A stretch of 59,290 nt of DNA, from IMG/VR virus record IMGVR_UViG_3300029721_000003; one strand, written 5' to 3'. Source of the DNA: a virus. The notes beneath the pieces are model-generated. The model worked only from the letters and a program-made list of their open reading frames with translations. It made no database searches and was not told the DNA's origin. Numbering within the stretch: the stretch's first letter is position 1; each line of letters starts with the position of its first letter. Positions 3,122 through 47,625 of the stretch are shown one piece after another. Made by a program: the position numbers and the translations under genes.

Positions 3122-3879
3122 TTCATCACCTCCATCCATTCATCAAATACATTTTTCTTACCTTGCTGTTTATTAGAATTATCTTCTTTCAGTTCAAACA
3201 GCCCTTGCCAACAATGGTCTACTGATTGATTAAGAATTTTAACAGCTAAGTCATTATCTCCACCAGACAGCTTTTCAAGGGTATTCATAGCCCTATGTAA
3301 TGCCTTGTCAGTGCATATAGGTTTTTTAATTTTCTTACGCATTGTCACATATTCGTTAAATGCTTCATCAAGTAATTCATCATCTGGATAATAACTTTTC
3401 TTTTTGGATATTACGTTAGTAATATCTTTTTCTGTATTCTTATCTTCTTTAATTTCTTCTGTCCTTTCATTCTTACTTTCTTTTAATATAGAGTTTGTTA
3501 ATAGAATGTTATCTGTTTGTTGATTGTTTGTTAAGTTGCTTGTTATTTGTTTGTTATCTTGCTTGTTATCCGTTTGATACAAATTGTAGTTAACCACAGT
3601 AAATATCGTGAATTTGTTTGTTGCTTTGCTTGTTATTTCGCCTGTTAATTGTAAGTGTTTTAGCGAGGTACGAATTTCCATTACAGACAAATTAGTTTCT
3701 TTTGATAATTCAGATATTGAAGAGGGGAAAGACCCTCTTTCAATTATCTTACCTTTGTAATTTCCGTCTTTCCAATAGGCACTTATCAACATATACATAA
3801 AAAGTCTGAATGTATTAATATCGCTCCACCATTCCCACTTTAAAATCTTTCTGTCAATTTTAATAAAGTTACCTGCCAT
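3118..3879 (-). CDS. Phage replisome organizer / replication initiator (winged-helix N-terminal domain)
   Basis: MAGNFIKIDRKILKWEWWSDINTFRLFMYML...SISELSKETNLSVMEIRTSLKHL; GAGG RBS before the ATG at 3879; internal iteron-like repeats. Confidence 0.7.
   Translation of the reverse strand: MAGNFIKIDRKILKWEWWSDINTFRLFMYMLISAYWKDGNYKGKIIERGSFPSSISELSKETNLSVMEIRTSLKHLQLTGEITSKATNKFTIFTVVNYNLYQTDNKQDNKQITSNLTNNQQTDNILLTNSILKESKNERTEEIKEDKNTEKDITNVISKKKSYYPDDELLDEAFNEYVTMRKKIKKPICTDKALHRAMNTLEKLSGGDNDLAVKILNQSVDHCWQGLFELKEDNSNKQQGKKNVFDEWMEVMK
3500..3640. repeat. Iteron-like direct repeats inside the organizer gene (candidate origin)
   Basis: TTGCTTGTTAT at 3536-3546, 3559-3569 and 3626-3636, plus TTTGTTTGTTA variants. 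Confidence 0.5.
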
Positions 3880-3940
3880 AATTACCTCTTCAAGTTCTGT
3901 CACATTGTTACTTCACTAAATCGTTGATATTAACTCTGAA

Positions 3941-4099
3941 TCAGTCAAATTCCTTGCCTTTGCTCTTGATGTAAGCCGTTGTATCAAAGAACATCAAGTT
4001 GCCACTATTGTCCGTTGCCATACTTACACCATTTCTTGTAAGACTGCCTTTGAGTAGGTCAAGTAAAATCTGTATTTCCTGCTTTGTTTCGTCTTTCAT
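3941..4099 (-). CDS. Small hypothetical protein (52 aa)
   Basis: Hand-translated MKDETKQEIQILLDLLKGSLTRNGVSMATDNSGNLMFFDTTAYIKSKGKEFD; AAGGAGA RBS upstream. Confidence 0.5.
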   Translation of the reverse strand: MKDETKQEIQILLDLLKGSLTRNGVSMATDNSGNLMFFDTTAYIKSKGKEFD

Positions 4100-10919: not shown

Positions 10920-11801
10920 TTACTCCTGCATAAATGGTGGTAATATGCTATCTTCTGTCTGTTCTTCGGTTACTTCCGTGGCTGTGCCCTCGATAATGTC
11001 GCTTTCTTCAAAATCAACGCTGTTTGCGTTCTGCTCAATATCGTACGCAACATCCTGTTCAAGCATTTCATCGTGGCTGATTTCCTCGTAATCCTCATTT
11101 TCATTACCACTATGAGAATTATTGATGTATTTAAGAAGCCTATTCTTAACAGTTTTCATAGCCATCTGGTCGGCAAATTTCTGATGTGTACCATTCCCAT
11201 TCTCTTTGTACCCATATCCCTGCTTCCAAGCCTGCTTAATCTGTGCAATGGTCATAACTTCTGATATTTTCTCTCCGTCATCCATAACAGCTACCGCATA
11301 AGCACCAACAATCTTATCATTGTCGATATTCTCAAAGCTCTGTTCGTGGCAATCAATAATTGTCTTTGCGTCCTCTTTGTGATACTTGAACACATCTCCC
11401 TTGTAAATGACCGCTGCGTTAATGTCTTTAAGCCCGAATCTCCTTGCTATACAAGTGTTTCCATATACTGATTTCTGACACTGTAGCTTACCGCCATAAG
11501 CAACCGGGTAGCACTGTTTCTTCTGCATTGAAAGTCCATTCGTAACCATTTCAACAAGTGCATTTTCGATACTTGCCCTTGTGCAACTCTGCAATACAGG
11601 CTTTTTGTTCATATCTACTGTGTCCTGCAAAATCAGCATTGCCGACATAAATTCGTTTGTATAGTTGTAATCTTTAGGGAATGTTAAACCGAATTTCTCT
11701 TTCTGCTTAATTTTAACAACCATTCCCTCTGTAAAATCCTTTGCTACAAGCTCTCTGCTTTCGGCTTCTTTTGTTTCCACAACTGCTGTATTCTCTGCCA
11801 T
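10920..11801 (-). CDS. recT: RecT-family single-strand annealing protein
   Basis: 293 aa; ...QKKQCYPVAYGGKLQCQKSVYG...VGAYAVAVMDDGE...IAQIKQAWKQ pattern; acidic C-terminus. Confidence 0.7.
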   Translation of the reverse strand: MAENTAVVETKEAESRELVAKDFTEGMVVKIKQKEKFGLTFPKDYNYTNEFMSAMLILQDTVDMNKKPVLQSCTRASIENALVEMVTNGLSMQKKQCYPVAYGGKLQCQKSVYGNTCIARRFGLKDINAAVIYKGDVFKYHKEDAKTIIDCHEQSFENIDNDKIVGAYAVAVMDDGEKISEVMTIAQIKQAWKQGYGYKENGNGTHQKFADQMAMKTVKNRLLKYINNSHSGNENEDYEEISHDEMLEQDVAYDIEQNANSVDFEESDIIEGTATEVTEEQTEDSILPPFMQE

Positions 11802-18846: not shown

Positions 18847-20127
18847 TTAGACTAATTCACAATCGGCTATATTGACTGCAGCAAACAGTTCTCCGTCATG
18901 CACAAGTACAACTCTGTCGCCACTTCTTTCTGATACTGTATACTCATCAAACCAAGCTTTGATAGGTGTACCGTCATAATCAGTATCGCCAACAAATCTC
19001 ACTGTGCTACCCTTTTCAATATCTTCACTGAATGGGATATCTGTAGGCGCATCATCAGAACTTGCACCGCCGACAAATTCAAGGTTAGCAATATTGACAG
19101 CAGCTGTGATTGTTGTACCGATACCTATAACAATTCTGTCCCCGCTCTCTTCAATCACATCATATTCATCATAATATGTCGCGAATCTCACGCCGTCATA
19201 ATCAATGTTATCAAGCACTCTGACTTTCTTGCCGTCACCACGACTTATTGTATCTGTGTTGATATCATTGTCACTGTCATAAATGCACTTGACAAGGTTG
19301 ATGTTATTCTCGTCAATAGCAGCAGTAGTTACGCCGTCAACACCGATAACAACTCTTCTGCCACTGGCTGATAAGACACTGTACTCATCATAGTAAGTGC
19401 TGAATGGCTCGCCATTATCGTACTGAATAGCGTTAATAACCTTAACTGTATCGCCCTTATGGTATTTAGTGTCTGGTACTGGCTCATAGTCTGGCACTGT
19501 GATTTCTTCAACGACATGGTCTGTGCAATAATCAGTGTAACAATAGTTCTGGTCTACTGTCTGTCCGTTAATCTGTGTGTCTCTAAGATAATTAACACTT
19601 CCACCAAACTGCCACATATCATAATCAGCAGCAATTCTAGGTTCTGCATCTGAATACTTTGCTACCCAAACGGCATAACCAGCTTCTTTTACTCTTGAAA
19701 TGTCTACATAATTGTTAATGCAGTTCTCGTATGAGTATAAGCCGACATTCTTATATCCTGCATTTCTCATTTCATCAAGAAACGCCATAATAATGTCTGT
19801 AAGGTCGTCGCCAGTAACCATGCCTGCTTCAACATCATAAAACACTGGATAACAAAATGATTTGCCTGCTAAAAGCTGTGCAAAATATCGGGCTTCATTT
19901 ACAGCTTCATCATTGCTTAATGCGTTACCGAAGAAATAGGCTCCTTTGTGGATTCCTGCACTTTCCAACTTGTTATAGCTGTTCTCAAATTCTCTATCTT
20001 CGTATAAGCCATCATCGGCACCGCCTGCCTTGATAATGGCAAAATCTACACCCTCATTATCCTTTGCGCCTTTGAAATCAAAGTCTCCCTGCCATCTTGA
20101 TGTGTCAATTCCGAATAACTTACTCAT
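18847..20127 (-). CDS. Endolysin: GH25 muramidase plus three tandem SH3-like wall-binding repeats
   Basis: FGIDTSRWQGDFDFKGAKDNEGVDFAIIKAGG... N-terminus; three ~65-aa repeats (KGDTVKV..., GKKVRVL..., KGSTVRF...) each ending ...AAVNIA.LE.V. Confidence 0.85.
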   Translation of the reverse strand: MSKLFGIDTSRWQGDFDFKGAKDNEGVDFAIIKAGGADDGLYEDREFENSYNKLESAGIHKGAYFFGNALSNDEAVNEARYFAQLLAGKSFCYPVFYDVEAGMVTGDDLTDIIMAFLDEMRNAGYKNVGLYSYENCINNYVDISRVKEAGYAVWVAKYSDAEPRIAADYDMWQFGGSVNYLRDTQINGQTVDQNYCYTDYCTDHVVEEITVPDYEPVPDTKYHKGDTVKVINAIQYDNGEPFSTYYDEYSVLSASGRRVVIGVDGVTTAAIDENNINLVKCIYDSDNDINTDTISRGDGKKVRVLDNIDYDGVRFATYYDEYDVIEESGDRIVIGIGTTITAAVNIANLEFVGGASSDDAPTDIPFSEDIEKGSTVRFVGDTDYDGTPIKAWFDEYTVSERSGDRVVLVHDGELFAAVNIADCELV

Positions 20128-35751: not shown

Positions 35752-36623
35752 TTACTTTCCGAACTTAGCAAGAACAACCTTTGAATCATTGCTTAAGACT
35801 GCTGTATAGTGTTCATCACCAGAGATAACAGTTGTCTTTGCAAGAATATCTCTGTCTGATTCAATCTCAACGCTTCTCTTCATATAGATTGTAAGTGCGT
35901 TCTCTTCCTCTGATACGCCATCTGCACCTGTGTCCTCGTTAGGGTCTTCTGCTGATACGATAACAATAGGACAAGCGTAGAACTCTGTTGCAACAGCCTT
36001 TAACTTGCTACCTACCTTAATTTCCTTACCCTTTGGCTTAAGCGTATGTGCAAGTGCTGTGTCAAGGTGAACATTCGTTGTATCCTCGTTTGTTGTATCA
36101 GCCACAACATTGATTGTTCCTGTTGAATCATCAAGCTCATACTTAACTAACTTAACTTTCTTTGACTTAACAACCTGCGCTCCTGCAATAGAACCGATAG
36201 TTCCATTCATAATTACATTAAGTGGGTACTTGTCATTGCTCTTGAAATCATCGTCATTAAGTAATGTGGCTTCCTGTGCCGGATTGATGAACAATATCTT
36301 TGTAAGTGATGAATCTGATTCATCATCAAATTTGCTATTAGCTGCTACAACTGCTGAATAGCTGATAGGTGCTGCTGTTCCATCGTAATCAATAGGTGCT
36401 GTGCAAAGTGCGTCATAGCTGTCATTATCAACCTTTGCAGCGATTGACATAGCAATCTGATTGATAGCTGTACCAAGCGGGTCGCCATAACCAGATAATA
36501 CTGATTCGTCTGTAAGTTCTACTGCCTTACCTGCTTTCTTAACCTTTGCTTCTGTTGTAGATGTTGTAAGTACTGTTGTACCCATAGCAACACCTTCTGC
36601 TACATCTTCTGCGTCACCAATAT
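35752..36623 (-). CDS. Major capsid protein, exon 2
   Basis: ...IGDAEDVAEGVAMGTTVL... to the stop at 35752. The track ORF start (GTG at 36636) is an artefact of the intron. Confidence 0.8.
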
Positions 36624-37890
36624 CATTGACATTCACATAGGTTCGCTAATTCCTATGCCGTTCTCTAACGAACTGCTATACATTACTGCATAGATTAGAC
36701 TATATCTTCAACTTTTGGTAATAAAAAAAGATGTGCTTTTGCACATCTTAAAGTTGCTCTCCATTTCCACACGCTTGTGTGTACTCCCTTTCGGGATAGT
36801 CGTTGAACCTTACATATTTAACAAGAAATTATCTAACTGCCTTTTAGCTTTATCGTTCCTTATCCACCAATAAGGAATTCTTAATAATGGAATGTTATGT
36901 TCTCTGCAATATTCATTTTTTATTTCATCGTGCTTCTTGGTCATTTCGTAGCTAAATATTGACCTGCTAGAAAAATGCTGAATACCGTCAAATTCCACAA
37001 GCCTAATTTCTCCATTTTGAAAAACAGCAAAATCAAACGGTAGTGGTAATGTATCTTTGCAATCAATAAATTTATATTGTTGAGAATACTTTAATCCATT
37101 TTCTTTTAGATATTCGCTAATGAACAACTCTCCTTTAGAAATCATACATTTAGGACACCTTTCTTCTCTTAAAAGGTCTTTAGGAATCACTTCCCATTCA
37201 TATCCGCATATATGTTTTACTTTTATAGGTGTCCTGTTATTGACATATTCTCCCATAATTGTATATTTCCCGGGATATTTTGTTTCAATTTCATCAATAA
37301 ATTTACTTGTATCTTTCATTCCGTGACATATAGGACAACCGCTTCCTTGTAACAAGTTTCCAGCATTCACTTTGTATCTATGATTGCACTTAAGATTTAT
37401 CACATCAATTTTGCTATTAACTCCATTGTAGTCTCCCACAACTTTAATCCAATCAATTCCTTTACCTCTCAAATCCTTTTCGTATCTTTCTTTAGTTTTA
37501 GTTTTTGAAATTGATATTGATTTTCCCTTACACTTTCCGCAACCTTGATGTGCTAAAAGCTTGATAGGTGCTTTCATTTCAGAATGCCCGCATTTTTTGT
37601 ATTTGACAAGTATCTTTTCTTTATTGTTTTTATACTTCCCTAACACTTCCAATGTGTTGCCATATATATCGTTTATTTCTTTTTTAAATTGTTCATCAGT
37701 TTTTCTTTTCATTTTCGTTCCTCCGTATTTGCATTATATCATATATTGCACAACATATCAATACTTTGGAACTATATGTTAAATATGTCTTGGTTGCTGA
37801 TTGTCCTAAAGTTGTGACATTTCTTTAGGAGTTTCCAGCAGTTAAAAGAGTTTTCGATAACTGTTACCAGTTAAAGGCGCATATATGTTT
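36624..37890 (-). mobile_element. Group I intron with internal homing-endonuclease ORF
   Basis: Core elements on the minus strand: P AACTGCTGGAAAC (37843-37831), Q CAATCAGCAAC (37803-37793), R GGTTCAACGACTATC (36809-36795), S GAAGATATAGTCTAATC (36709-36693). P/Q and R/S are complementary. GNRA-capped hairpins are present. Confidence 0.8.
36810..37712 (-). CDS. Intron-encoded homing endonuclease: three zinc-ribbon modules plus Vsr/DUF559-like PD-(D/E)xK domain
   Basis: KCGH..CGKCKG, KCNH..CPICHG, ICGY..CPKC repeats; C-terminal SKGELFISEYL...LPFDFAVFQNGEIRLVEFDGIQHF; GGAGG RBS. Confidence 0.65.
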   Translation of the reverse strand: MKRKTDEQFKKEINDIYGNTLEVLGKYKNNKEKILVKYKKCGHSEMKAPIKLLAHQGCGKCKGKSISISKTKTKERYEKDLRGKGIDWIKVVGDYNGVNSKIDVINLKCNHRYKVNAGNLLQGSGCPICHGMKDTSKFIDEIETKYPGKYTIMGEYVNNRTPIKVKHICGYEWEVIPKDLLREERCPKCMISKGELFISEYLKENGLKYSQQYKFIDCKDTLPLPFDFAVFQNGEIRLVEFDGIQHFSSRSIFSYEMTKKHDEIKNEYCREHNIPLLRIPYWWIRNDKAKRQLDNFLLNM

Positions 37891-38050
37891 ACGCATACTT
37901 TGGCACAACGATTGTGCTTCCCGGTCTGCCTACAAGTGTTGTATCAACTCTTGCGATAGGTGAGAACTTAATCTTCTTTGGTAACTTAGCTGATACCATA
38001 TCAGCCATTACCTGTGGGTCTACTAAATTTGCTAACTTAGTCTGTGGCAT
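37891..38050 (-). CDS. Major capsid protein, exon 1
   Basis: GGAGG RBS, ATG at 38050; MPQTKLANLVDPQVMADMVSAKLPKKIKFSPIARVDTTLVGRPGSTIVVPKYA, then TAA if unspliced. Confidence 0.8.
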
Positions 38051-38070: not shown

Positions 38071-38649
38071 CTACTCTGTGAACTTCTTATAAAGTTCTGG
38101 ATTCTTATTTTTGAACTCCACTCTTTCGTGGTAATTCATCTTGTTAAACTGTTCCTGTGTTATCGTGCTTTCTTCTCCACCGCCTGCATTAATAGCCGGT
38201 CTTGATTTAAGCCACTCTGCCTTAGCTTCTTTAACCTGTCTTTGCACTTCATTGGCAATTACAGTTGCTATAAGGCTATGGTCTGCATCTGCAACCGCCT
38301 CAATCAAAGAATCAATATCCTTTCCATCGCCTATAACTTTCTGATAAGCATTGACAGCTTTCATATGATTAAGTTCTTTGCTCATGTTCTCGAACTTTTC
38401 AGCCTGCAACTTTTCAGCTTCTGCCTTTGCTTCCGCTTCCTGTTCTTCTGCTGTCTGCTTCGAGCGAAGTTCTTTCTTGTACTTAGCTGCTTCTGAACTG
38501 GCTTTATCGGAAGCATTCTTATACTTCTCTTTTTCAGCTCTTTCACTAGCAAGCTGCGCCATAAGTTCTTCTACGCTAGGTGTCTGCTCTTCGTTCTGTG
38601 GCTCATTGTTAGTTGTTGGTTCTGTTGTTGTGTTAATTACATCTGCCAT
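38071..38649 (-). CDS. Scaffolding protein
   Basis: MADVINTTTEPT..., acidic coiled coil (AEKEKYKNASDKASSEAAKYKKELRSKQTAEEQEAEAKAEAEKLQ); between portal and capsid. Confidence 0.7.
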   Translation of the reverse strand: MADVINTTTEPTTNNEPQNEEQTPSVEELMAQLASERAEKEKYKNASDKASSEAAKYKKELRSKQTAEEQEAEAKAEAEKLQAEKFENMSKELNHMKAVNAYQKVIGDGKDIDSLIEAVADADHSLIATVIANEVQRQVKEAKAEWLKSRPAINAGGGEESTITQEQFNKMNYHERVEFKNKNPELYKKFTE

Positions 38650-38775
38650 AATTTCTTTACCTCTGCTTTCTGCGTTTTTTGTTGTTCTCTCAACTTCTTG
38701 CGATATTTGTATTGCCCTTTCTCTAGGACATATAAAAAGCCACAAGGCATTTCTACCCTGTGGCTCAATATCAAT

Positions 38776-40368
38776 TTATTTATCAGTTCTGCTCTTATCT
38801 ATAACTGGACTATTTTCTGTCTGGTCTGATAAGTCTTGCATTGTGCGGTCTTTGTTAGGCGATTGTTCGCCATCTCCGCCCTCTGCTTGGTTCTGTGTGT
38901 CTTTGTTAATTATGCTGTCTTGATATGCCTTAACCATTTCTCCGCTTCTTGCTACAACATCGTTAGGGTCATCAAAAAATGGAATTGCATCAACTGTATC
39001 TTTAAGACTAAATCCGTGGCTTATCAATGTCGCCATAGCGTTAACCTTAGTTGACATTTCATAAGTTTTTTGTCGCTTAATGTTAGGCTTTACATCTCTT
39101 GCCCTTAATTTAAGTAATGGATTACTGCTATTAACATTGTTTGACAGCTTAATAGCCGCAAGAACAACTTTTATCTCTTCCATTTTGCAGCCATCTGTAA
39201 TCAGTTGTTGCTTTGCCGCCGCTGTTTCTGCTTGTGACCAGCCTGTTGCGTCCGACATTGCAACTCCTGTACTTCCACCGCTATTATCATTTCGTTGTGG
39301 CACATTGCATTTCTGCAAGATTATCTGTCGCCTTGATTGGATATTATTAAGCATACCTGTGTAATCGTAATTGATTGCAAGTGGCTCAACTATTGGAGTT
39401 TTGCCATCTGCTGATGTGTAGGTCTGCATCCATTCTCCAGATTTTGGCTTTCTTACTTTTTCAGTAATGCGTTGCGTTCCATCTTTATCAACTGTTGTTT
39501 CCTGTTCAACCGGGAAATCAACATCATTTGTATGCCATACTGCCTGTGTATTCTGTTCGACATCATTCGTGAAATCTGAAATGAGTAGGTTTAAGTTATC
39601 CATTTCAGATATTTGCCGTTCAAAACATCCCATTCTATCAAATGACCTTGTATATTCAATAATAGGGATTTTATGTAATGGGTTCTCTTCCCCACTTCTC
39701 TCTAAAAATCCCCATTTTGTTTTTCCTTTTTCTGGTCCGTTAGTGATTTTTATTCCGTCGGTAATTTCATAGCGAATATCTTTTGTAAAACAGGTGTAAT
39801 ATCTTGTACCGCTATGTTTGTCTTTGATATAAGTACCTGCAAGAATAACCCTCTTATCGCTATAAGCTGTTGACCTTACAACAAATGTTGTTCTTGGATC
39901 TAATACATCATATGTGAAATAGCTTTCCCCATCCTCATATTCTGTATTCACATCAATAAGGACATATCCAACACCGCCGATTTCAACATATCTTGCAAGT
40001 TCCTGTTGCTTCTGCCTTGCATTCTGTGATTCGTAGCAACTGTTTAATTCTGCTATAGCTTCTGTGAGGTTAGAATCCTCATTGTCGCCGTTTTGAACTA
40101 GCGTTATAGGATTTCCCCACTTAAATCCTAAATTAAACTCTGTGACCTCGTTAGCCACATTATCACAGCATTCACAATCAATGTCTGGTCTGTAAGTCTT
40201 TGGGTTCTTCCTAACTATTGGCTGTATTCCTGCGTCATAATCAAGAAGAAACTGTATTCTGTTGGAATTAATATCATGTTCCAAAATTGCTTCACGCAAA
40301 ATTGGTATTATATTGTCAGGTGTTATTTCTTTTGCGCCTGTATAAATAGCAATTCTTCCTGTCTGCAT
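38776..40368 (-). CDS. Portal protein
   Basis: 530 aa; position after the terminase; SPP1-type portal-like sequence. Confidence 0.8.
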   Translation of the reverse strand: MQTGRIAIYTGAKEITPDNIIPILREAILEHDINSNRIQFLLDYDAGIQPIVRKNPKTYRPDIDCECCDNVANEVTEFNLGFKWGNPITLVQNGDNEDSNLTEAIAELNSCYESQNARQKQQELARYVEIGGVGYVLIDVNTEYEDGESYFTYDVLDPRTTFVVRSTAYSDKRVILAGTYIKDKHSGTRYYTCFTKDIRYEITDGIKITNGPEKGKTKWGFLERSGEENPLHKIPIIEYTRSFDRMGCFERQISEMDNLNLLISDFTNDVEQNTQAVWHTNDVDFPVEQETTVDKDGTQRITEKVRKPKSGEWMQTYTSADGKTPIVEPLAINYDYTGMLNNIQSRRQIILQKCNVPQRNDNSGGSTGVAMSDATGWSQAETAAAKQQLITDGCKMEEIKVVLAAIKLSNNVNSSNPLLKLRARDVKPNIKRQKTYEMSTKVNAMATLISHGFSLKDTVDAIPFFDDPNDVVARSGEMVKAYQDSIINKDTQNQAEGGDGEQSPNKDRTMQDLSDQTENSPVIDKSRTDK

Positions 40369-41166: not shown

Positions 41167-42933
41167 TTATATCGGACTTGACATTATTACTGTTTGTGTT
41201 GCCTTTTTATCTATTACTATTGCAAGCTGTGTTATCGAATCGCTTGCATCATCGTGTGGATTTTTACCCTCTGATGTATACATTGTAAATTCATCCATAG
41301 CATCTTGATACATCTGTGTTCTTATGTAAGTTGGTCTATCATCTATTGCAAGATACTGCCTACTCATAAGGAAAATAAAAGTTTCTTTTACTCTGTCAGA
41401 ATATCCTTTGATTTTTTCCTCTTTAGGCAGTTTGGTATTTGCGTAATATGGAATAATTCTGCAAAAATATACATTCTGCTTTTTCATTTCAGCTTTTATA
41501 CTGTCCGTTATTAGCTTCCCACCAGCATTTTGTTCAATGTGCAATTCTGTTATGTAATGTTTCTTGATAGCTGCTACAACCAACGGAACTGTAACCGCCT
41601 GTGTACCTTTTTTATATACCCAATCAATAATATATTTTTGCTTTCCACCAAAATCAGCACATACCGGCATTGATAAATTATCAGCTCCGCCAAAAGCCGG
41701 GTCGCACAATGCTATTATTTTTCGTTCTTTATTTTCCAGCTCATCGTTAAAGTCTCCATTGAAAAATCTCAATTCGTTGTCCGGGAATAGCAATCCCTCA
41801 CGAACATAAGGCTTTTGCATAAACTTAGCCATCCATTCAGCTTTATCAAGTTTTTCCCTCATATCTCTGTAATAAGCTGTTGAAAAGCCATTTATTTCAT
41901 AGTCAAAGTTGCTCTCATCATTTTCATTAAGTGCCGGTATTCTTCTAAACCTGTATTGTGGGTCATTTTCGTATTGCTTTCTCATTCGTTCCAATGGGTC
42001 AAGGACATTCCATAATGTACCTACCATCAATTCTCTTGCACCATCGTTTTTTCGGTCAACCATCTTGTTTAGATACTCTTGATAGGTATTTTCCATTCGC
42101 ATAGGTGATAATGAATGTTCTCTATCTCTTACCAAATCATCCACATACAAATATCCATCTTTCGATACATCAACCGCACCGGTCCAAGTGCCATCAATAC
42201 CACGACAAGTAACTGTCGCAAATCTGTCTGGATTTCCAAGGGTTATTGTAAATTCATCAGCACTTTTATCTGTTACAAGTGGTTTATTTGCGTATTCTGG
42301 ATTCCAAAAATAAAACAATTCAGAAAATGTATACTCTTCTGTAGTAAATAAGTTCATAAGTTCTTTGTAAAAGCCTTTTGCGAGTATTCCAGAGTGACCG
42401 CCCATAGCTGAATGGCTATTAGGTCTGCGTAACGATACCCACGCAAGAAAGAATATACAAATTGTGGACTTTCCAACTCTTGACGGCATTGATAATCCAT
42501 AAAATTTAATTATTCTGTTTTCAAGGTCTTGCAAATCATTGACAACTATTTTAAGGGTGTGTCGCCTTGGAAAATAAAACCTTTTGCTGTAATGTCTTTT
42601 CCGTTCCATATAAAACATAAAGCTCTCAAAATCATAACAACTTTCAGTTTTAAGAGTTTTATACCATTTGTCAATTAAAGGATATTCTTCATCGTTGTCT
42701 TGAGCATATTTTTCTAAGTCCCATATTCCAACGCCGCTATGCTCCACGCAAAACTGTTCTATAATCTCTTTACAGCGTTTTGTTAGTTGTAATCCATACT
42801 GAATATCCTTTTCAGTTTTAATTGCCACTTCTGACGCTTCTATGTATGCGTCCATAACGCTTTCATCTATTCCATTTTTCTCTATGTAATTTTCATATCC
42901 ATTGATTGTAGAAATAAGGCTCTGACTAGCCAT
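41167..42933 (-). CDS. terL: Terminase large subunit
   Basis: Walker A ...MPSRVGKST..., nuclease-half motifs; GGAGGTG RBS before the ATG at 42933. Confidence 0.85.
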   Translation of the reverse strand: MASQSLISTINGYENYIEKNGIDESVMDAYIEASEVAIKTEKDIQYGLQLTKRCKEIIEQFCVEHSGVGIWDLEKYAQDNDEEYPLIDKWYKTLKTESCYDFESFMFYMERKRHYSKRFYFPRRHTLKIVVNDLQDLENRIIKFYGLSMPSRVGKSTICIFFLAWVSLRRPNSHSAMGGHSGILAKGFYKELMNLFTTEEYTFSELFYFWNPEYANKPLVTDKSADEFTITLGNPDRFATVTCRGIDGTWTGAVDVSKDGYLYVDDLVRDREHSLSPMRMENTYQEYLNKMVDRKNDGARELMVGTLWNVLDPLERMRKQYENDPQYRFRRIPALNENDESNFDYEINGFSTAYYRDMREKLDKAEWMAKFMQKPYVREGLLFPDNELRFFNGDFNDELENKERKIIALCDPAFGGADNLSMPVCADFGGKQKYIIDWVYKKGTQAVTVPLVVAAIKKHYITELHIEQNAGGKLITDSIKAEMKKQNVYFCRIIPYYANTKLPKEEKIKGYSDRVKETFIFLMSRQYLAIDDRPTYIRTQMYQDAMDEFTMYTSEGKNPHDDASDSITQLAIVIDKKATQTVIMSSPI

Positions 42934-43033
42934 AAGAAAAGCACCTCCACTTTTCAGCAAAGGTGCTTATAGACCTCTGCCTATAATTGTTTTAGGGTAG
43001 CGACTACAATCAATCTGTAGCCGGTAATATCGC

Positions 43034-45587: not shown

Positions 45588-46679
45588 CTACCATTCTTTG
45601 CTTTCACACCAGCTACCCTTGCAAGCGTGATTCATAATGTTAATTAAAACCTTTTCAGAAGAAAAGTGAACTAAGCTGTAATCACATTGTGCTGAAAACT
45701 TTGTATTGAAATATTCATCAACCAACATCTTGTAGTCTGTATTATCGTCCATATCACTTATAGCCGCATAATAGGTATCTGTATATCCGTCACGCTCTAT
45801 GTCGGTTTCTTTTGTTAAATTATCTACTACTCTTGATAAAACCTTATCTGTTAATGGGTAGTGATATTCTCCAGTACATTCTCCGTGTTTGTCTAAAAAG
45901 TATTTAAAGAATGCTTCTGTATTTTCTTTGAGCGTTTCATCGTTAGTCCAATCATAAGCTATCTTGCCAGCTCTGCTTATCATTCTTTCTTCGGCAACTT
46001 CCCAATCACTTTGAGAGTATTCGCTTATCGGCTTAAACTCTTTCGCTTTTTTATCTTTGGGTAAAAAAGAATTACATTGTTCTCTGTTAAGAGAATTACA
46101 CTCTGTATTTAATGTTCCGTAATTAGTGTTATGGTAATCATTGTTAGTAATCCCTGTTAAAAGAGTTACACCTTGTGGCATTCCCGAGTTACACTTTGTG
46201 TTATTCCCTTGGGAATTACATTTTGTGTCATTCCCGTTTTTCTCATTTTGTAATTTCTGTCCTTCATCTTCTGCTATAACCTCTTGCCTGATATTTTCTT
46301 CCCATTTTTTAACTTCTGCGTTGATAACATCATAATTAGGTCGTATATGTATAGTTGGCATTGAATTGAATTTGTATTTTGCTGTAATTACAAACTTTTT
46401 TTCTACCAACGATTTAATCGCTTTGTCATACTGCCTTTCAGTAATCCTTATCTCTTCCCACCAGTCTTTTCTTTGCTTTGCAATCCAATATTTGCCATTT
46501 TTGTATATCTTGACTTTGCTTTTATTATCTTTAGTTGGTGCAAACCAATATAAAATTCTTGATAACAGCGTACCCTCTATCAAATCACCTGTTATGTCAA
46601 TGTATTTATGGAATGTGTGGTTACACCTTGCTGATGATAGAAAATTAACTTTTGTTTGGATTTCATTTTCTGATAGCAT
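45588..46679 (-). CDS. Second replication-initiator-like protein (winged-helix N-terminus) with internal iterons
   Basis: ...GDLIEGTLLSRILYWFAPTKDNKSKVKIYKNGKYWIAKQRKDWWEEIRITERQYDKAIKSLVEKKFV...; repeats in the mid-gene linker. Confidence 0.5.
   Translation of the reverse strand: MLSENEIQTKVNFLSSARCNHTFHKYIDITGDLIEGTLLSRILYWFAPTKDNKSKVKIYKNGKYWIAKQRKDWWEEIRITERQYDKAIKSLVEKKFVITAKYKFNSMPTIHIRPNYDVINAEVKKWEENIRQEVIAEDEGQKLQNEKNGNDTKCNSQGNNTKCNSGMPQGVTLLTGITNNDYHNTNYGTLNTECNSLNREQCNSFLPKDKKAKEFKPISEYSQSDWEVAEERMISRAGKIAYDWTNDETLKENTEAFFKYFLDKHGECTGEYHYPLTDKVLSRVVDNLTKETDIERDGYTDTYYAAISDMDDNTDYKMLVDEYFNTKFSAQCDYSLVHFSSEKVLINIMNHACKGSWCESKEW
46069..46235. repeat. Five iteron-like ~23-bp direct repeats (candidate second origin)
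   Basis: GAGTTACACCTTGTGGCATTCCC (46163), GAGTTACACTTTGTGTTATTCCC (46186), GGAATTACATTTTGTGTCATTCCC (46212), plus weaker copies at 46069 and 46091. Confidence 0.65.
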
Positions 46680-46777
46680 ATTTATTACCTGCCTTTCTGA
46701 TAACTGCCTTATTAACAAAACAACAAACAGGCACTAAGGCTTGTGCTTTTCGGTCTGCATCACCTAGTTTGTTGTAA

Positions 46778-47172: not shown

Positions 47173-47249
47173 AACTTACTCACACCTCTTGACCTAGGAT
47201 AAGTCCGCAAACAGCATTACGCACGCAGACCTAAGAAGTGCTTTCAAAA

Positions 47250-47332
47250 CGCCGACATCGTGAATCGAACACGAACAACATTTCTGCTGGATAGCTTAGC
47301 AAGCTACTGGAATGCTTTTATCCCATATCGGC
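47250..47332 (-). tRNA. Class-II tRNA-Ser(GCU)-like gene with non-canonical D-arm
   Basis: GCCGATA/TGTCGGC acceptor; anticodon arm GTAGC-TTGCTAA-GCTAT; variable arm CAGCA-GAAA-TGTTG; T-arm TCGTG-TTCGATT-CACGA; D region is a 6-bp hairpin lacking GG; no encoded CCA. Confidence 0.5.
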
Positions 47333-47554
47333 AAATACCGCCTGTAACGGCTATCAAGGGAAAATGCAATAATATTTTGGGGGATATTGTGGAAGAACCT
47401 TGATAAGTTGATTTTCACACCTCTGTATGAGGTAAGCCTTTCCGAGTGGTCTTTCACCACCCTTAACTGAATCTCCAAGAAAGTACATGAAAGGAGGACT
47501 ACCCTGTAAAATGCAAAACAGTTTGATGGTAGTCTACGATAAAAGTAAGACAAA

Positions 47555-47625
47555 CTACCCCAGTGGGATTCGAACCCACGCTAACGGAATCAAAGTCCGG
47601 TGCCTTACCGCTTGGCTATGAGGCA
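47555..47625 (-). tRNA. tRNA-Gln (anticodon UUG)
   Basis: TGCCTCATAGCCAAGCGGTAAGGCACCGGACTTTGATTCCGTTAGCGTGGGTTCGAATCCCACTGGGGTAG; full cloverleaf, close to canonical bacterial tRNA-Gln; no encoded CCA. Confidence 0.9.

Follow-up and report, generated by a model that had tools for sequence, protein, structure and literature searches.

The major capsid gene of the virus recorded in IMG/VR as IMGVR_UViG_3300029721_000003 lies on the minus strand of a 59,290-nucleotide (nt) stretch of DNA (the window, meaning that whole stretch) and is interrupted by a 1,267-nt segment, which we analyze here as a candidate group I intron with an open reading frame (ORF) for a putative homing endonuclease. Such an intron had been proposed in an earlier note on the letters of the window; all the coordinates and sequences quoted there were found in the window, and the intron boundaries are exact to the base. 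In the order of transcription, the parts of the locus are as follows.

37891-38050, minus strand: capsid exon 1, 160 nt, comprising 53 codons and the first base of the Tyr54 codon and ending ...GCG U
36624-37890, minus strand: intron, 1,267 nt, with A 37890 as its first base and G 36624 as its last
37733-37761, minus strand: promoter-like site in the intron, TTGATA, a 17-nt spacer and a TG-extended TATAAT (11 of 12 matches)
37724-37720, minus strand: GGAGG ribosome-binding site of the intron ORF, between the promoter-like site and the ATG
36810-37712, minus strand: intron ORF, 300 amino acids (aa), in its own frame, a putative homing endonuclease
35752-36623, minus strand: capsid exon 2, 872 nt including the stop codon and beginning AU AUU GGU GAC

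Gene callers see the exons as two ORFs. The first, of 53 aa, runs from 38050 to 37889 on the minus strand with a ribosome-binding site ahead of it and reads MPQTKL...VVPKYA before it meets TAA, while the second, of 294 aa, is called from a GTG at 36636 and is the remainder of a Phage_capsid_4/PHROG 544 major head protein. This GTG lies inside the intron, and the upstream extension that ORF callers give to exon 2 is spurious. Joining T 37891, the last base of exon 1, to A 36623, the first base of exon 2 (...AAGTATGCGT to ATATTGGTGAC...), gives 160 + 872 = 1,032 nt up to the stop codon, which ends at 35752, and a 343-aa ORF that reads ...VVPKYAYIGDAEDV..., with ...VVPKYAYIGDAEDVAEGVAMGTTVL... 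as the predicted peptide across the junction. The joined protein matches thousands of uninterrupted capsids of 339 to 344 aa, the best of them with 96% identity over 100% of the length. In an alignment of 17 capsid sequences, P50-K-Y-A-Y-I-G56 and A58 are invariant and both pieces are aligned colinearly and without gaps, so that the junction predicted in the earlier note is colinear with its uninterrupted homologues. We also found the exact 343-aa product that had been predicted, as an ordinary uninterrupted called gene in the protein collection (P0284). On the two contigs that carry it, L171 and L172, the capsid gene differs from the predicted spliced coding sequence at 6 and 5 of 1,032 positions, respectively, with all differences synonymous, and the intronless DNA, in which ...TATGCTT is followed directly by ATATTGG..., is the precise exon join. 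Another intronless relative, L001, reads AAGTATGCTTATATTGGTGAC and has the exon join at the DNA level as well. The intron and exon 2 both begin with A, so that the letters by themselves leave the junction ambiguous by one base; the group I rules, which call for a U ahead of the 5′ splice site and a G ahead of the 3′ one, settle it as originally proposed. A pattern scan of IMG/VR for the 3′ splice junction gave 73 loci, of which the real ones are identical copies and that of phage Tuc2009, the others being chance matches.

In the GenBank third-party annotation (TPA) records DAF15650.1 and DAF15653.1, whose sequences are identical to that of the window, the 53-aa exon-1 product is labeled "major capsid protein" and the intron ORF "restriction enzyme." Public records of this phage group list a separate 294-aa capsid fragment, and the 294-aa exon-2 ORF clusters with full-length capsids. 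Naive annotation does truncate the capsid gene in these records, as the earlier note had warned. If the true product is, as we predict, a single protein of 343 aa, such genes will be miscounted when gut phages are classified by their capsids or their proteins are clustered.

The RNA between the exons can be drawn as a complete group I ribozyme. The helices of this hand-drawn structure (P1, P10, P2, P3, P4, P5, P6, P6a, P7, P7.1, P7.2, P8, P9, P9.1, and P9.2) and the classical core elements are placed as listed below, with the evidence for each in brackets.

37840-37831, 37800-37792, 36801-36793, and 36703-36693, minus strand: core elements P, Q, R, and S, in this order
37877-37894, minus strand: P1/P10 region (P1 and P10 covary in homologues)
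37859-37872, minus strand: P2 hairpin AACUG-GUAA-CAGUU, GNRA loop (100% paired, two-sided changes in 5 of 5 pairs)
37850-37845, 37840-37835, and 37830-37804, minus strand: P3 5′ strand CUCUUU, P4 5′ strand UGCUGG, and P5 hairpin (covariation, fold)
37800-37795 and 37794-37792, minus strand: P4 3′ strand UCAGCA and P6 5′ strand ACC (P4-P6, 21.2-bit Rfam match)
37778-37788, minus strand: P6a 5′ strand ACAUAUUUAAC, which pairs with 36822-36812 and closes the ORF-bearing loop (two-sided changes in 11 of 11 pairs)
36822-36812, minus strand: P6a 3′ strand GUUAAAUAUGU, made of the final ORF codons and the first base of the ORF stop codon (covariation, fold)
36809-36807, minus strand: P6 3′ strand GGU (covariation, fold)
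36801-36796, 36795-36786, and 36781-36768, minus strand: P7 5′ strand GACUAU, P7.1 hairpin, and P7.2 hairpin (46.3-bit Rfam match, covariation, fold)
36762-36757, minus strand: P3 3′ strand GGAGAG (46.3-bit Rfam match, covariation, fold)
36709-36756, minus strand: P8 (CAACUUU...AAAGUUG), with an inner 9-bp hairpin at 36749-36728 and then a U run, resembling an intrinsic terminator (covariation, fold)
36703-36698 and 36693-36676, minus strand: P7 3′ strand AUAGUC and P9 with a GUAA loop (Rfam, covariation, fold)
36673-36660, 36657-36636, and 36624, minus strand: P9.1, P9.2, and the terminal G (Rfam, covariation, fold)

Covariation was counted on a MAFFT alignment of nine distinct introns from the same capsid site, with their ORFs removed. 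In these introns, 90.6% of the pair cells form standard pairs, compared to 34 to 43% when the 3′ partners are slid by 1 to 3 columns, and changes on both sides are found in 52 of the 89 pairs; none of 500 shuffles reaches any of the observed measures. Pairing is 100% in P2, P3, P4, P6, and P7.2, and two-sided changes are found in P3, P4, and P6; in P7, which hardly varies, pairing is 94%. The alignment takes no account of structure: in P1, Tuc2009 is off by one column, and some misalignment is also present in P5, P8, and P9.2, so the numbers of unpaired cells in P1, P5, P8, and P9.2 are overestimates. The minimum-free-energy fold of an ORF-less construct of the window intron has an energy of −98.4 kcal/mol (z = −6.5; none of 100 shuffles is as good) and recovers every drawn helix except P7, which is pseudoknotted. 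The four core elements are present in the order that had been claimed for them, the helix pairing is backed by covariation, and the 300-aa ORF lies between Q and R, where the earlier note had placed it, and within the P6a loop.

The Rfam model Intron_gpI (RF00028; gathering score, 50 bits), searched with permissive filters over 36500-38000, matched the minus strand in two fragments that are in the right order. The stronger one (36893-36676, 46.3 bits, E = 2.9e-10) covers J6/7, P7, the P3 3′ strand, P8, the P7 3′ strand, and P9, and the weaker one (37840-37746, 21.2 bits, E = 0.0098) covers P4-P6. Each fragment stays below 50 bits because the 0.9-kb ORF in the P6a loop splits the model. A homologous intron that has no ORF, at the same capsid site in contig L227, matches model positions 1-253 with 112.8 bits (E = 1.7e-30) and is 81% identical to the ribozyme portion of the window intron. 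The Rfam gathering pipeline returned nothing on the 13-kb L227 locus, and it was the permissive filters (on L227 3500-4200) that found this match. Default Rfam scans under-report group I introns of this type.

Michel and Westhof are reported to define subgroup IA by two additional hairpins, P7.1 and P7.2, which follow P7 and precede the P3 3′ strand. Since both hairpins are present in the window intron and are kept with compensatory changes, we assign it, by this structural comparison, to subgroup IA without a split between IA1 and IA2 (IA2-like). P8 contains a terminator-like hairpin and U run at 36719-36749, which places it after the endonuclease ORF and before exon 2. At the same position in P8, L085 also has a hairpin and U run, with another hairpin sequence, and P8 is short in L084, L086, and Tuc2009. 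The predicted role of this hairpin is that it may end the endonuclease's own transcript.

The splice sites can be paired in the way that the earlier note had modeled them. In P1, exon bases GCGU 37894-37891 and intron base A 37890 pair with U 37881 and the guide GCGC 37880-37877, which places a U.G pair (U 37891 with G 37880) at the 5′ splice site; in P10, AUAU 37884-37881 is able to pair with 36623-36620, where exon 2 begins, and the window has only these four P10 pairs. Homologues carry compensatory changes in both helices, with P1 reading GGAGCU/GGUUCC in Tuc2009 and GGGUGU/GCACCC in L098 and P10 reading CAAUAU/AUAUUG in L085, L087, and Tuc2009, CUAUAU/AUAUAG in L086 and L141, and CACUAU/AUAGUG in L098. 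The U before the intron and the G at its end are present in all nine homologous capsid-site introns. We also compared the Ala codon that precedes the site (third base at 37892 in the window) among L001, L084-L087, L141, L168-L172, and the window. It is GCG in all six Ala-bearing intron alleles, while in the six intronless alleles examined it is always GCT or GCA, a difference that fits guide pairing, co-conversion, or both.

These observations bear on an explanation without splicing, under which the capsid gene is broken and the prophage is in decay, or the pieces of 53 and 290 aa are separate products that assemble as a split capsid. The separate annotation of the pieces by gene callers and TPA records would agree with this, as would the in-frame GTG at 36636 for exon 2 and the terminator-like hairpin that precedes that exon. 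However, no ribosome-binding site was noted in the bases preceding the GTG, all ribozyme helices are retained with compensatory changes in nine lineages, the splice-site rules are obeyed by all nine introns, and the Ala codon pairs with the guide in all six intron-bearing alleles that have Ala there. The intron-bearing allele is also abundant, on 91 to 141 contigs from many samples, many of them 55 to 60 kb long, which is phage-genome size and argues for a viable phage. We therefore consider a broken or split capsid very improbable. A nuclease ORF in the interruption would equally be expected of a group II intron, an intein, or an endonuclease gene standing free between two genes, and beyond that interruption nothing favors these. 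The insert has stop codons in the capsid frame, from the TAA at the junction onward, and its ORF has its own frame and ribosome-binding site, which excludes an intein; among RNA families, Intron_gpI matched the insert and neither group II nor any other did, and the flanking ORFs are two halves of one protein. We give these other elements almost no credence compared to a group I intron.

The intron ORF probably has its own promoter and ribosome-binding site, to judge from its upstream region. The promoter-like site is near consensus and lies 21 nt upstream of the ATG, and similar sites are found in most homologues (L085, L086, L098, and L141), with none in the closest relative, L084. The N-terminal region of the ORF protein contains three zinc-ribbon repeats (Pfam DUF4379/CapR). 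Its C-terminal domain, of about 115 residues (about 186-300), contains E195, D227, E240, D242, H246, D262, and K265, which are invariant among homologues. In structure models (mean predicted local distance difference test [pLDDT] of 87 for the whole protein and 92 for the C-terminal domain), this domain has an alpha-beta-beta-beta-alpha-beta order, and the top PDB matches in a Foldseek comparison with solved structures are all PD-(D/E)xK proteins (Bax1, AF1548, the R2 endonuclease domain, TnsA, and Hjc; probability, 0.96 to 1.0). Pfam DUF2726 matches 23 of the 30 members of the endonuclease family. As modeled, the C-terminal domain is a nuclease of the PD-(D/E)xK fold with invariant acidic residues D227 and E240/D242. 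The earlier note read the ORF as a homing endonuclease and gave no classical family for it; the fold and the zinc ribbons are a minor correction to that reading.

Other nuclease families were considered for this protein. No Pfam HNH family matches the window protein, and a His-Me family is found in only 2 of the 30 homologues (best E = 0.072); the label "HNH endonuclease" that PHROG 559 and the RefSeq record of Tuc2009 attach to such proteins is unsupported by motif or fold, because there is no HNH motif. LAGLIDADG, GIY-YIG, and His-Cys box families had no match in Pfam, NCBIfam, or PHROG, and the NCBIfam search of the endonuclease gave nothing. Membership in the EDxHD or Vsr group may be suspected from an IEFDGxQH motif; neither 3R3P nor Vsr was matched among PDB chains at E ≤ 10 or among the top 50 Foldseek hits. 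The ORF has an E...D...x...H...D-like string of residues (E195, D227, E240/D242, H246, and D262) that is comparable with EDxHD, with no homology match. Many predicted proteins of phages and giant viruses share this architecture, under names that vary between homing endonuclease, DUF2726, DUF559, and "group I intron protein."

Relatives of the endonuclease with 42 to 81% identity sit, in every case examined, between a 53- to 55-aa exon-1 ORF and a capsid exon-2 ORF; this arrangement is found at loci from eight other phage lineages (L084, L085, L086, L087, L095, L098, L141, and Tuc2009). Intronless phages that are otherwise nearly identical to the window are also found. L171 and L172 are 99.5 to 99.8% identical to it, and L171 is 99.77% identical over 5,134 nt that span the site. 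Of the 12 mismatches of L171, 11 are confined to the interval from −532 to +146 around the site (binomial P of ~2e-9 for 11 of 12 within 678 nt), and four of these are in the last 92 nt of exon 1. This clustering looks like what co-conversion of flanking markers in homing produces. Genomes that are nearly identical thus differ in whether the intron occupies one exact site, and the flanks appear co-converted.

The endonuclease cassette varies within the ribozyme as well. In L227 (IMGVR_UViG_3300045988_076387, 3739-4017, minus strand), the ORF-less intron is 279 nt long and 276/277 identical to the ribozyme of the 1,237-nt intron of L086, from which it differs by a cassette of about 958 nt in P6a only; therefore, the ORF cassette has been gained or lost by itself. 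In L087 (Anaeromassilibacillus senegalensis GCA_001261775, LN868537.1; 2271-3673), a homologous endonuclease with 55% identity lies within the P6a loop on the strand opposite to the capsid, so the cassette can occupy either orientation in the same ribozyme loop. More distant relatives, with 30 to 40% identity (L102, L103, L109, L132, L146, L157, and L163), are located just downstream of a group I P7/P9 core, not in P6a, and in genes other than the capsid gene; in L103, two group I cores flank the ORF. By our reading of these placements, the endonuclease family has moved between intron positions and host genes.

An intron that splices could still carry an ORF that is not, or never was, a homing endonuclease, such as a decayed gene, a maturase-like helper, or another selfish nuclease, and would then be inherited only vertically. 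The ORF matches no characterized homing endonuclease, databases call it "restriction enzyme" or "hypothetical," and its closest relative (L084) does not have the internal promoter, all of which would suit such an ORF. In contrast, the reading frame is intact and its candidate catalytic residues are invariant in homologues down to about 40% identity, the ORF keeps to one capsid site in many lineages, mismatches cluster around that site in a near-identical intronless phage, and the cassette is present or absent on ribozymes that are the same at 276 of 277 positions. We think vertical inheritance with a nonhoming ORF unlikely, at a clearly higher probability than the explanations without splicing or without a group I intron.

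Taking these lines of evidence together, we read the window with high confidence as a siphovirus-like temperate phage of gut Clostridia whose major capsid gene holds a mobile group I intron of subgroup IA, and the splicing and mobility that we infer are part of this reading. Several points weigh against it. Splicing is predicted from structure and junction only, and P1 is short, with four exon pairs and one intron pair. A scan of the whole window at the Rfam gathering score gave no intron match, and both fragment scores are below that score; the negative scan has no weight, because the same pipeline also missed the 112.8-bit match in L227. The P8 hairpin could lower read-through of the capsid transcript. 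Foldseek E-values are marginal (about 3e-3), and at the level of sequence the nuclease matches no homing endonuclease that has been solved or characterized; searches of PDB chains with phmmer and with profiles gave rubredoxin or Myb noise or nothing. Finally, intron loss by recombination, rather than gain, could leave a similar cluster of mismatches.

In the mechanism that this reading proposes, the late pre-mRNA would fold into the P1-P10 ribozyme, and exogenous guanosine would attack after U 37891, held as U.G with the guide GCGC. The freed exon 1 would then attack after the terminal G 36624, with exon 2 aligned by P10, and the ligated 1,032-nt mRNA would be translated into the 343-aa capsid protein. 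The putative zinc-ribbon and PD-(D/E)xK nuclease most likely cuts intronless capsid alleles near the point where ...AAGTATGCT meets TATATTGGTGA..., and repair of the break from an intron-bearing allele, in co-infection or prophage contact, would copy in the intron together with flanking exon markers.

The closest known system is the lactococcal phage Tuc2009 (AF109874), which has a group I intron in its major head protein gene mp4 (orf37/orf38/orf39), described by Seegers et al. 2004 as far as the papers that cite it relate (PMC3706429, PMC2504315). The first of these cites Tuc2009 as a known capsid intron (PMC3706429), and the second lists the intron as a BLASTN relative of the IA2 intron TMP-IVS2 (PMC2504315). 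The two capsids are homologous, with 47% and 40% identity for the two exons, and the insertion codon is the same (...PAWS/YIGDAADVAEG in Tuc2009 and ...PKYA/YIGDAEDVAEG in the window). Both ribozymes are homologous and have U.G at the 5′ site and a terminal G, and the endonucleases, in the same P6a loop, are 51% identical in amino acids, with DNA that is 68% identical over the 3′ half. The systems differ in host (Lactococcus rather than gut Clostridia) and phage lineage, in P1 (GGAGCU/GGUUCC compared to GCGU/GCGC, a compensatory difference), and in a large extra insertion between P7 and P7.2 and a short P8 without the terminator-like hairpin in Tuc2009.

The td intron of phage T4, in the thymidylate synthase gene, is likewise a phage intron of subgroup IA with P7.1 and P7.2, and the ORF for I-TevI, a GIY-YIG enzyme, is looped out from its P6a, with a 3′ end that overlaps the ribozyme and a promoter of its own. 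In contrast, the window intron is in a capsid gene and its predicted nuclease has the PD-(D/E)xK fold with zinc ribbons. The 3′ core of the window intron has DNA similarity to many introns of T4-like phages. In mycobacteriophage LittleE, a capsid gene is also split by an endonuclease-carrying intron, for which splicing was proven by reverse transcription-PCR and N-terminal sequencing, showing that highly expressed capsid genes tolerate introns (PMC3706429). However, the capsid, the site, and the intron are unrelated to those of the window, the ORF that it carries is an HNH one on the other strand, and the authors did not settle on an intron type (PMC3706429). I-Bth0305I, of the "EDxHD" Vsr-like type, is a multidomain protein encoded in a phage group I intron and has a C-terminal restriction-endonuclease-like nuclease (PMC3239194; PDB 3R3P); unlike the window protein, which has three zinc ribbons and is encoded in P6a, it has NUMOD/helix-turn-helix N-terminal motifs and an ORF in P5. 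Prophages of the Bacillus cereus group have IA2 introns in tape measure, terminase, and tail tube genes (PMC2504315); like the window, they are temperate phages of Firmicutes with group IA introns in late structural genes, but the host genes and endonuclease content are different. Group I introns in terminase and other essential genes are also known, with metatranscriptomic support, from gut jumbo phages (PMC12363816). The statement in the earlier note that self-splicing introns are uncommon in essential late structural genes overstated the novelty, as Tuc2009 has one at the same capsid codon, and introns in capsid, tail, and terminase genes are also documented in other phages (PMC3706429, PMC2504315).

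An intron of the same kind at the same capsid site has been known since Tuc2009, and what is new here is modest, namely the breadth of the family in gut Clostridia phages, the transfer signatures in metagenomes, and the recognition of the PD-(D/E)xK and zinc-ribbon domains. Knowledge of group I introns is unchanged; this is expected biology that is useful for annotation. One family of intron and endonuclease holds one capsid site across distant Firmicute phages, and the apparent recent transfers in human-gut metagenomes (a co-conversion tract, an ORF-less form, and an inverted-ORF form) would provide a natural example of the homing cycle. With somewhat less than even confidence, we also suggest that the ORF may represent a biochemically uncharacterized lineage of homing endonucleases with three zinc ribbons and a DUF2726-like PD-(D/E)xK domain, outside the six or seven named families, which has specialized on the capsid codon pair Y/IGDA and carries its intron between capsids that are only 40 to 50% identical, from phages of Lactococcus to those of gut Clostridia. 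With its promoter within the intron, the terminator-like hairpin in P8, and an ORF cassette that can be freely inverted (as in L087), it would then be an autonomous gene cassette nested in a ribozyme. The endonuclease might also serve in competition between co-infecting phages, a role shown for the intron endonuclease of PhiPA3 (PMC11620839). Independently of this suggestion, the putative nuclease family might be useful as a source of rare-cutting enzymes.

From the genes that it carries, we take the window to be a temperate phage genome. The other features that we placed are as follows.

113-1360: tyrosine integrase
10920-11801: RecT
18847-20127: GH25 lysin
38071-38745: probable scaffold protein
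38776-40368: portal
41167-42960: terminase
46707-46774, minus strand: int-alpA RNA motif
47249-47333 and 47555-47625, minus strand: two tRNAs

A scan of the genome collection found only three relatives of the capsid, in Lachnospiraceae and Clostridia metagenome-assembled genomes and in Eubacterium multiforme, and all three are intronless. The int-alpA RNA motif (53.3 bits) adjoins the beginning of an ORF of 376 aa (45588-46718) without a Pfam match, the recognizable integrase is elsewhere, and the two phage tRNAs, Ser-GCT and Gln-TTG, are located close to this motif.

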